Assembly: GCA_964016885.1 (NCBI GenBank)
Contig: OZ024745.1
Location: 47,182,001-47,246,000, forward strand
DNA from: Eledone cirrhosa
Lineage: Eukaryota
Length of the DNA: 64,000 nucleotides
Direction: 5' to 3'
Every line of letters begins with the position of its first letter. Position 1 is the first letter of the stretch. The translations under genes were made by a program, and so were the position numbers. The notes under the pieces were generated by a model. The model saw only the letters and a list, made by a program, of their open reading frames with translations. It did not search any database and was not told the DNA's origin. Below, one piece after another: positions 20,540 through 22,238 of this stretch.

Positions 20540-20609
20540 GTATATATATGTATGTATATATATATATGTATAGAAAGATTTGAATGGATACAGTTTAGTT
20601 AAAAGGAAT

Positions 20610-20730
20610 TTATTGACACGTGTTTCTATAACAGTTACATAACCTGAAAACAGCTGCTATCTACAAAGTATTAGTTATGCAGACATTCAATATTTCAATG
20701 TTATTATCAACTGCCATTTCATCGGAATAA
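20610..20730 (-). ncRNA. Penelope pLTR hammerhead, CCGATGA core, 92-nt branched stem II
   Basis: TTATT-CCGATGA-A-ATGGCAGTTG...TAACTGTTAT-A-GAAA-CACGTG-TC-AATAA, downstream of the GIY-YIG ORF on the same strand. Confidence 0.65.
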
Positions 20731-21248
20731 TTTTACTGAGGACCTGTTTGTTTTTTATAGAGAATATTAGGAGGGCGGGGTGAAGTTGTTAGAAGAATAG
20801 TTGAGGGAGTGGTTTTTTGATAGCAGTGAGAATTTTTGGCGGAAGTGAGTAATTAGATTCCCATCTGTTGTTTTGACATTTTTATAGAATATATTATTGG
20901 TTATTTTTTCTAAATCTATAGAAGGATTAGAGATAGTATAGATATGCGTGGTTGGTTTTGTGTTTGCACTTAATTAACATTCAGACTTAAATTTTTCTTT
21001 CAAGTGTACGTATCCTTTCGCCCACGCATTCACACACAAACATATATGCACACCTCTACAAAATACATATACTCACATTCACATACTTACATGCTCATAC
21101 TTACATACATATACACATGCATACATATATATATACACACATATATACATGTACATACATACGCGTTCATGTGTATACATTTTCATACTCAACTTATCTT
21201 TATATACACACGTATAGACACACACATATATACATACATACTCCAGTC

Positions 21249-21310
<62 letters not shown>

Positions 21311-21586
21311 CACTTTAATACATGAATACACTTACATCTAACTATACACATCAAACATATATATATATTTACTTATTTATATACATTTTCACATATATAT
21401 ACATACTTATGGTCGCTTTTAGACACATTCATTATCGCATATTTGCACCTATTCTCATCAGCATATCTTTCCATTATTAGTGTGGTAATTTAAGGTTATT
21501 AATATACATATATATGTTGAGAAGAGATTGTTTTTATATTTTCTAACTAGATTGAGGTTTATATAGTTGGGGGGGATGTCCCTCTT

Positions 21587-22238
21587 TTATGTAATATTCA
21601 GCTTGTAGTGGGAAAAAAGGGTTTTAGTTCGGTGACGGCAGAATAATGTTCGTTCAATTCTGTTATTCAGCAATTTCCTCTTGTGTGTGATTATGTAATA
21701 AATCTCAAGATTACACAATTTGCAGAAATTTTGGCTCCTGGAAAAGCTTTGGGTTTTAGCTAATTTCTCCCATTTTAGGGTAAACTTTTGATCGCTATCC
21801 CTGAGCGTCCAAGCTTTTTCTGCTAAAGTTGTTACATTTCTTTGGCTCTGGTGTTTTATTGAGTAAGAATGCCCATATAATCGAGATTTAAACGATGTTG
21901 CCGTTGATCCCACGTAATACCACTCGTTGCCTCCGGATTTAATGGTACACTTATAAATAATATTTTTTTCCAGGCAGTTATTGCCGAGGGGGCAGTTGTT
22001 AGGATAGGTGCAGTTACAGTTGTGTACGTTGGGTTTTCTCTGGAGTAGTATTGCGGACGAACTTAGGTGTGGTTTATTTATGTTCTGTAGTGTATTGTCT
22101 ACTGTTTTTTTTGTGTTCTTTTTACTTAAGTTTTTAGTGTTTTCGTTTAACCTTCTAGTATTGATCTTTTTTATGTGTTGTTCAAGGTTTAACGCTGTAG
22201 AGTATGACAGTCTTATAGTGGTAGGGTTTAGGATTTTT
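21587..22238 (-). CDS. Penelope-like element (Neptune-type) C-terminal GIY-YIG endonuclease, 5'-truncated
   Basis: IRLSYS..NL...[26 protein letters not shown]...[15 protein letters not shown]...TTLA...W...CKLCNLE...LLNNR.E...CRHR. The first ~45 aa of the ORF-track call are microsatellite. Confidence 0.88.

Follow-up and report, generated by a model that had tools for sequence, protein, structure and literature searches.

On the minus strand of a 64,000-nucleotide stretch of Eledone cirrhosa DNA (the window), the 3′ end of a truncated Penelope-like element (PLE) of the Hydra clade carries a hammerhead motif, at position 20725, with a 92-nt helix II extension. The reading that we favor (probability, ca. 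0.7) is that the hammerhead is of the usual type I, that the rod predicted for its helix II was likely inherited within the lineage, and that the C at core position 4 (C4) is a minority allele, which likely weakens the ribozyme and does not define it.

The element and its clade

The 5′-truncated element copy occupies positions 20575 to 22238 (minus strand) and is flanked by TA-rich microsatellites. Contigs of two runs (X1 and X5) run into (TA)n at 20577-20578, both stopping at one place. What remains of its open reading frame (21587-22237, minus strand; 216 aa to the stop) comprises the end of the reverse transcriptase (RT) thumb, a linker, and a GIY-YIG endonuclease. A GIY-YIG frame upstream of the hammerhead had been proposed from the letters of the window; that frame is real and ends in a stop codon. 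The RT core is absent from it, and a Hydra-type protein profile matched it with an E value of 1.4e-50 at profile positions 426 to 606 only. Since this lone copy has neither an RT nor a tandem partner, it is likely inert. The stop codon lies ca. 860 nt from the hammerhead, and the long 3′ untranslated part includes a TA/TG microsatellite tract (approximate limits, 21020-21410; no strand). On either side of the element, at 20423-20480 (minus strand) and 18027-18130, stand tRNA-like heads that belong to a SINE family.

Relatives of the endonuclease were found chiefly by profile, with 3,517 at an E value of 0.001 (best, ca. 110 bits); word-based protein searches found just 1 and 0. A Pfam search of the frame returned nothing above the cut-off, and an SpvD match below it (E, 0.007) was taken as chance.

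The Hydra clade has been defined by a CxCX5C linker, the loss of CCHH, CxxC and CxH beside conserved E and N residues, and (TA)n targets (PMC8557442, section 11). The window endonuclease matches all four features. The linker motif is at 21992-22018 (minus strand), CCHH is absent, CxxC precedes the conserved E and CxH follows the conserved N, and TA microsatellites stand on both flanks of the element, where the X1 and X5 contigs also have their loose ends. The GIY-YIG domain is C-terminal, with thumb-end residues before it and the stop after it. Of 177 proteins retrieved among the relatives of this endonuclease, 127 have the CxCX5C linker and 150 have the CxxC..E..N..CxH pattern. The N-terminal motifs RW[KR] and DK[TS] occur in 10 and 15, respectively, of 16 long relatives, in a region that is missing from the truncated window copy. 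By these sequence motifs, the element is a Hydra-clade PLE; the RT is missing from this copy, and the clade assignment therefore rests on motifs.

The original prediction had called the element Neptune type. PLEs of the Neptune clade likewise combine a GIY-YIG endonuclease in C-terminal position and a cysteine linker with a hammerhead, but they have a CX2-5CxxC linker before GIY-YIG as well as CCHH, with two cysteines inside the GIY-YIG motif (PMC8557442). Both the Neptune linker and CCHH are absent here, and the combined Neptune pattern was found in 0 of the 177 retrieved relatives, so the Neptune identity was not upheld. The Neptune pattern was present in a control, the Neptune-type endonuclease of another locus (L057), which matched the window type over only 37 aa (23 bits).

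The hammerhead and its helix II

Read along the minus strand, the motif opens with the 5′ strand of stem I (TTATT, 20726-20730), which forms 5 bp with AATAA at 20610-20614. The core CCGAUGA (20719-20725) follows, its position 4 being 20724 (C here, U in most family copies), and then the 92-nt extension of helix II (20627-20718). The segment at 20615-20626 contains the GAAA of the core (20626-20623), the self-complementary ACACGTGT (20623-20616) that makes stem III palindromic, and the GUC cleavage triplet. The predicted cut falls after GUC, between 20615 and 20614, and the 3′ strand of stem I with the ca. 40-nt tail to the end of the element takes up 20575-20614. It shares with the minimal type I hammerheads of PLEs a stem I that is open, a stem III that is palindromic, a cut site of the NUH kind, and, at the base of stem II, one extra base.

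A scan of the window that allowed one core mismatch and inserts of up to 120 nt yielded five sites with at least 14 summed stem pairs, three of them canonical and two C4 (16707 and 20725); the 20725 site had 18 pairs. No site with at least 14 pairs appeared in 25 dinucleotide shuffles of the window (mean, 0.08 at 12 pairs). An anchor-based scan added two sites, at 54729 and 53295, both C4 with an 81-nt insert. The arrangement predicted downstream of the frame (i.e., CCGATGA, 92 nt, and a 10-bp closing helix) was thus confirmed, with no shuffle comparable, and the hammerhead motif at 20725 is real.

The motif shares much with published PLE hammerheads. Those of Hydra elements (Craig et al. 2021; PMC8557442) have the same C-terminal GIY-YIG, CxCX5C, CxxC/CxH, lack of CCHH, and (TA)n insertion in the element, as well as an unpaired foot of stem II, a short symmetric stem III, and a short tail after the cut. 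The minimal hammerheads described for metazoan PLEs (PMC4209133) are also type I, with a short helix I, an enlarged helix II (7 to 8 bp in that description), an extra base between 9 and 10.1, and a palindromic helix III. Against the CUGANGA/GAAA core type, the 20725 copy has C at position 4, where the majority of its family has U; the core variant described in PMC4209133 is U3-A8.

The ATG at the base of stem II opens an 18-codon frame (20663-20717, minus strand) that closes within the rod. The element probably does not start there, because the RW motif of the Hydra open reading frame lies 243 to 325 nt past the hammerhead in 17 Hydra loci.

The window holds further hammerheads. Canonical short type I motifs lie at 11071 and 52523 (both minus strand; copies of one family, in which stem I has 8 bp and stem III is closed), 39785 (plus strand), and 55189 (minus strand). 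Those at 13972 (minus), 24124 (plus), and 31660 (minus) form one family with a canonical core, a bulged stem II of 27 to 31 nt, and a TA-repeat stem III. At 23954-24180, two different hammerheads (24020, minus; 24124, plus) stand back to back on opposite strands, ca. 100 nt apart, with a 70-nt imperfect inverted repeat (24017-24086). The minus-strand member (23954-24026) has a canonical U4 core and a 39-nt stem II of 12 bp and served as a comparison case. Other repeats in the window include LINE copies encoding RT and then a PHD finger (14518-16119, 49277-51214, 55934-57888, and 58663-60564), one family of which is 93 to 97% alike and another ca. 75%, and near-perfect inverted repeats at 19100-19165 and 61658-61765 with arms of ca. 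30 bp, possibly MITE-like. The repeat landscape as a whole suggests an octopus as the host.

Stem II had been described as multibranched, with internal hairpins ACATT/AATGT and CATAAC/GTTATG, and the fold predictions contradict this. The minimum for the 20725 insert was an unbranched rod at -24.9 kcal/mol versus -16.9 kcal/mol for the best branched fold. One hairpin was present in 2,000 of 2,000 sampled folds, both named hairpins had a pair probability of 0.000, forcing both of them cost 8 kcal/mol, and the multibranched class had a probability of ca. 6e-7. The rod begins at an unpaired A.A base (for this part of stem II, a U.U pair that occurs naturally has been reported [PMC3088659]) and a 10-bp closing helix with pair probabilities of 0.64 to 1.0, and its continuation is irregular. 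The 92-nt insert was more stable than shuffled versions of itself (z, -3.27; 1 of the 200 equaled it); the whole 130-nt motif was unremarkable (z, -1.45; 14 of 200). Single hairpins also prevailed among the sampled folds of the inserts at 54729 (1,964 of 2,000) and 16707 (1,802 of 2,000). We conclude that the insert is predicted to be a plain unbranched rod.

Contigs of the 20725 family point the same way. Seven substitutions fall in the insert: three in the unpaired terminal loop, one of which would break the second named hairpin (CATAAC/GTTATG), three that keep their pair, and one that breaks a pair of the closing helix. As a point against our reading, the family showed no pair with compensatory changes on both sides. 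Refolding with the differences of each run gave one hairpin in 3 of 3 cases; with the majority letters, the closing helix shortens to 8 bp and the apical helix lengthens.

Three further loci of the window carry long inserts. A sister Hydra-type element (53533-54889, plus strand; endonuclease at 53536-53958) has a C4 hammerhead at 54729 with an 81-nt rod. An inverted copy of its 3′ repeat (53135-53534, minus strand; C4 hammerhead at 53295) is identical to the 3′ end of that second element at 398 of 400 bases. The repeat stands head-to-head with the 5′-truncated second element (53135-53958), a young insertion in the inverted form typical of PLEs. At 16700-16850 (plus strand), a relic 3′ end with a C4 hammerhead (16707) and a 52-nt insert is 73% identical to the second element over 71 nt downstream of the core; no open reading frame was found near it. 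At 16707 and 54729, stem I consists of just 3 bp, and the stem III of 54729 lacks self-complementarity. The sequence after the 54729 hammerhead was considered as the start of a next open reading frame, which was unsupported (1.4 bits; four shuffles higher).

The C4 loci with long inserts had been attributed to three unrelated families. Instead, the two window endonucleases (21587-22237 and 53536-53958) are 46% identical and are sisters, on long branches, in a quick tree of 89 rows (SH-aLRT, 95), and the 16707 relic is related to the second element as described above. The 3′ region of the 20725 element has no clear DNA similarity to the 54729 or 16707 regions, so its kinship to them rests on proteins.

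Covariation in the closing helix, proposed as a check of the structure, was found: five of the first eight pairs are changed on both sides among 20725, 54729, and 16707, in a comparison of three loci that were put into register manually, starting at the core (when five hammerhead regions were aligned automatically, the cores stayed out of register). A closing helix kept with different letters is one point for the view that the long rod is a selected module, for example a dock for the element's protein or a brace of the active fold, that makes C4 tolerable and would thus be permissive, not compensatory. We regard this as unlikely. The covariation rests on those three hand-aligned loci, and neither the length (52, 81, and 92 nt) nor the sequence of the insert is conserved between loci.

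To place the insert length among relatives, we drew on 79 Hydra-type loci from a metagenome scan (taken from the best 80 of 489 confirmed), which represent distant Hydra families. A first pass, allowing inserts of up to 200 nt and one core mismatch, detected a downstream hammerhead in 51 of the 79, all canonical, with inserts of 10 to 30 nt (41 distinct). A second pass added 13, all U4 with 11 to 25 nt, two of them with the known U3-A8 swap of the core (L009:2399 and L026:1768). Hammerheads were therefore present in 64 of 79 loci, all U4 with inserts of 10 to 30 nt; no hammerhead was detected in the other 15, many of which end soon after the open reading frame. On both strands of the 79 loci, there were 65 short U4 motifs, 1 short C4 motif, and no long ones. 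The window thus reveals a lineage of Hydra elements with a helix II of 52 to 92 nt versus 10 to 30 nt in 64 of 79 others.

Searches elsewhere gave no counterpart. A viral search for C4 with a long stem returned 120 matches (44 of 64 parts) with at most 4 summed stem pairs, a prokaryote search with 120 matches (9 of 64 parts) yielded a U4 case with 7 pairs and a further case with 9 pairs but a broken core, and none of 66 candidates for a Hydra-type protein in viral contigs was confirmed. Rfam did not match the 20725 hammerhead; we rejected this as a sign of novelty, since none of 20 ordinary short hammerheads of Hydra elements was matched by it either.

In the published table of Hydra hammerheads (PMC8557442 supplement), 26 of 26 rows are U4 with a helix II of 12 to 26 nt, whereas that of 20725 has 92 nt (relatives, 81 and 52 nt); the table was derived from a descriptor with short limits. 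Further differences from its rows are the distance of ca. 860 nt from stop to hammerhead and C4, which the table does not contain. Its Octopus bimaculoides entry, Hydra-1_Obim, has a different, short motif. According to the descriptor given by Cervera and de la Pena (2014; PMC4209133), stem II has 3 to 7 bp, loop 2 has 3 to 10 nt, and CUGANGA is required. The 92-nt stem II falls outside these limits, which bound the search and do not express a rule of function, and even the U4 copies of the 20725 family would therefore be invisible to it. The expectation that standard models would miss a long stem II accordingly proved right for this published descriptor (stem II of at most 7 bp). In the portions of the literature covered, including PMC10085705, PMC13282606, and bioRxiv 10.64898/2026.07.22.740005, there was no helix II of 50 to 90 nt and no C4 in PLE hammerheads; Lunse et al. 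2017, Arkhipova et al. 2017, Repbase, and the PMC4209133 and bioRxiv supplements may contain such variants. The nearest cases in those portions are PLE-X1_sMoe (PMC8557442, file S2), with a longer stem II of 9 bp and a 34-nt loop, and the Naiad "half-cores" (PMC8557442), with core halves 35 to 50 nt apart. Unlike the 20725 motif, these belong to other clades, have a U4 core, are shorter, and were not analyzed as structure in that source.

Position 4 of the core

Contigs from four of 18 runs were compared over 20576-20830, of which those of X4 stop short of 20724. At this site, U4 accounted for 83% of the depth in X1 (10,418 of 12,502; 16 contigs), 100% in X5 (19.5 of 19.5; 1 contig), and 100% in X6 (1,662.6 of 1,662.6; 1 high-depth contig); these shares are depths of contigs and not copy counts. 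The share of C4 in X1 was 17% at the site and ca. 2% of the median depth. The single X5 contig spans the whole stretch and has U4 and the long insert together, and their linkage rests on that contig. X1 has none, or almost none, of the letters that the window copy shows at 20714, 20751, and 20776, so the C4 contigs of X1 likely come from other copies than that of the window. From these results, the master of the 20725 family is U4, and the family keeps the long insert. C4 as the defining state of the core is therefore not borne out. Nor did the inserted domain evolve to compensate for C4, as had been suggested: the family majority is U4 with the long insert kept, which makes the insert independent of C4.

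A C4 master giving rise to U4 by CpG decay was considered and rejected. Decay is possible in the window in general (CpG observed/expected, 0.51), but the opposite-strand CpG change at 20723 is absent from the contig differences, which makes this route unlikely.

The association of C4 with long inserts at three loci was correctly noted (16707, 52 nt; 54729 and 53295, 81 nt). Against our reading, C4 is more than mere noise: it is found at three of four long-insert loci of the window, whereas none of the 41 distinct motifs of the background has it (Fisher P = 0.0003, a value inflated by kinship). Both copies of the second element (54729 and 53295) carry C4, which was therefore probably present in the transposing RNA, and C4 may be the family state of the 54729/16707 group. 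The same substitution occurs naturally in a viroid hammerhead (Ambros and Flores 1998), where U4C lowered activity in vitro with infectivity retained (PMC3088659). C4 is likely a tolerated weaker core that recurs in the long-helix-II lineage.

Three C4 loci with long inserts within 64 kb, together with the covariation of the closing helix, could also be taken for a C4-core subclass in Neptune elements, whose branched domain evolved in unrelated families to compensate for C4. We give this almost no credence in view of the Hydra motifs, the rod fold, the related families, and the U4 majority. The recurrence of C4 where helix II is long speaks for the selected-module view, as do reports that a Poseidon hammerhead showed cleavage only when protein was supplied (PMC11167929) and that peripheral contacts have been proposed to offset variant cores (PMC3088659); most copies of the 20725 family, however, are U4, and C4 also occurs with a short stem. 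The latter case is L057:2003-2970, a single-copy locus in which a Neptune-type endonuclease is followed by a C4 hammerhead (L057:2927) with a 14-nt stem II and a 6-bp stem I.

We also weighed whether selection for cutting has ceased to act on this lineage's hammerhead, with the long insert and C4 as drift in a dispensable motif. Catalytic mutants of the Poseidon hammerhead were without effect on insertion in vitro (PMC11167929), and the 3-bp stem I at 16707 and 54729 and the non-self-complementary stem III at 54729 could reflect such decay. Against this, the three loci have the rest of the core intact, 20724 is the only core position with a substitution in the contigs, and three runs that differ in organism label all retain the rod. 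Drift is thus a very unlikely explanation.

Putative mechanism and implications

Under our preferred reading of an ordinary type I hammerhead with an inherited rod, cleavage would take place in tandem transcripts, in which two motifs could pair via the palindromic stem III. PLE hammerheads of this sort are thought to cut weakly as dimers in this way (PMC4209133, PMC6765202, and PMC7761336), and dimer cleavage with low activity was proposed for the minimal PLE hammerheads (PMC4209133). The cut after GUC, ca. 40 nt from the end of the element, would be slow, perhaps with assistance from the protein of the element. Like any helix II, the rod would be stacked on helix III, and its extra length is most likely a peripheral extension that is tolerated and kept in duplex form. 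In the 20725 family, we infer that the long helix II came first and that C4 arose later in a small subfamily, as a weaker allele that the rod may permit.

A bolder version of this history, which we consider rather improbable, is that the 50- to 90-nt rod of this Hydra lineage is a protein-docking or regulatory arm that allowed C4, which is normally eliminated, to spread more than once and to establish itself as the family state of 54729/16707. If true, it would mean a hidden class of long-armed, protein-gated hammerheads missed by current descriptors.

The pairing of a ribozyme with a retroelement is known, and hammerheads are known from PLEs; what is new, a length variant, is small, and it is not a new ribozyme class. 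In this high-copy family, helix II has three times the usual length, and inventories made with short-loop descriptors therefore undercount such motifs; some reports of "no hammerhead" may come from overlooked motifs. Natural U4 and C4 alleles on one long-armed scaffold provide a ready pair for asking whether the cleavage rate or the arm matters.
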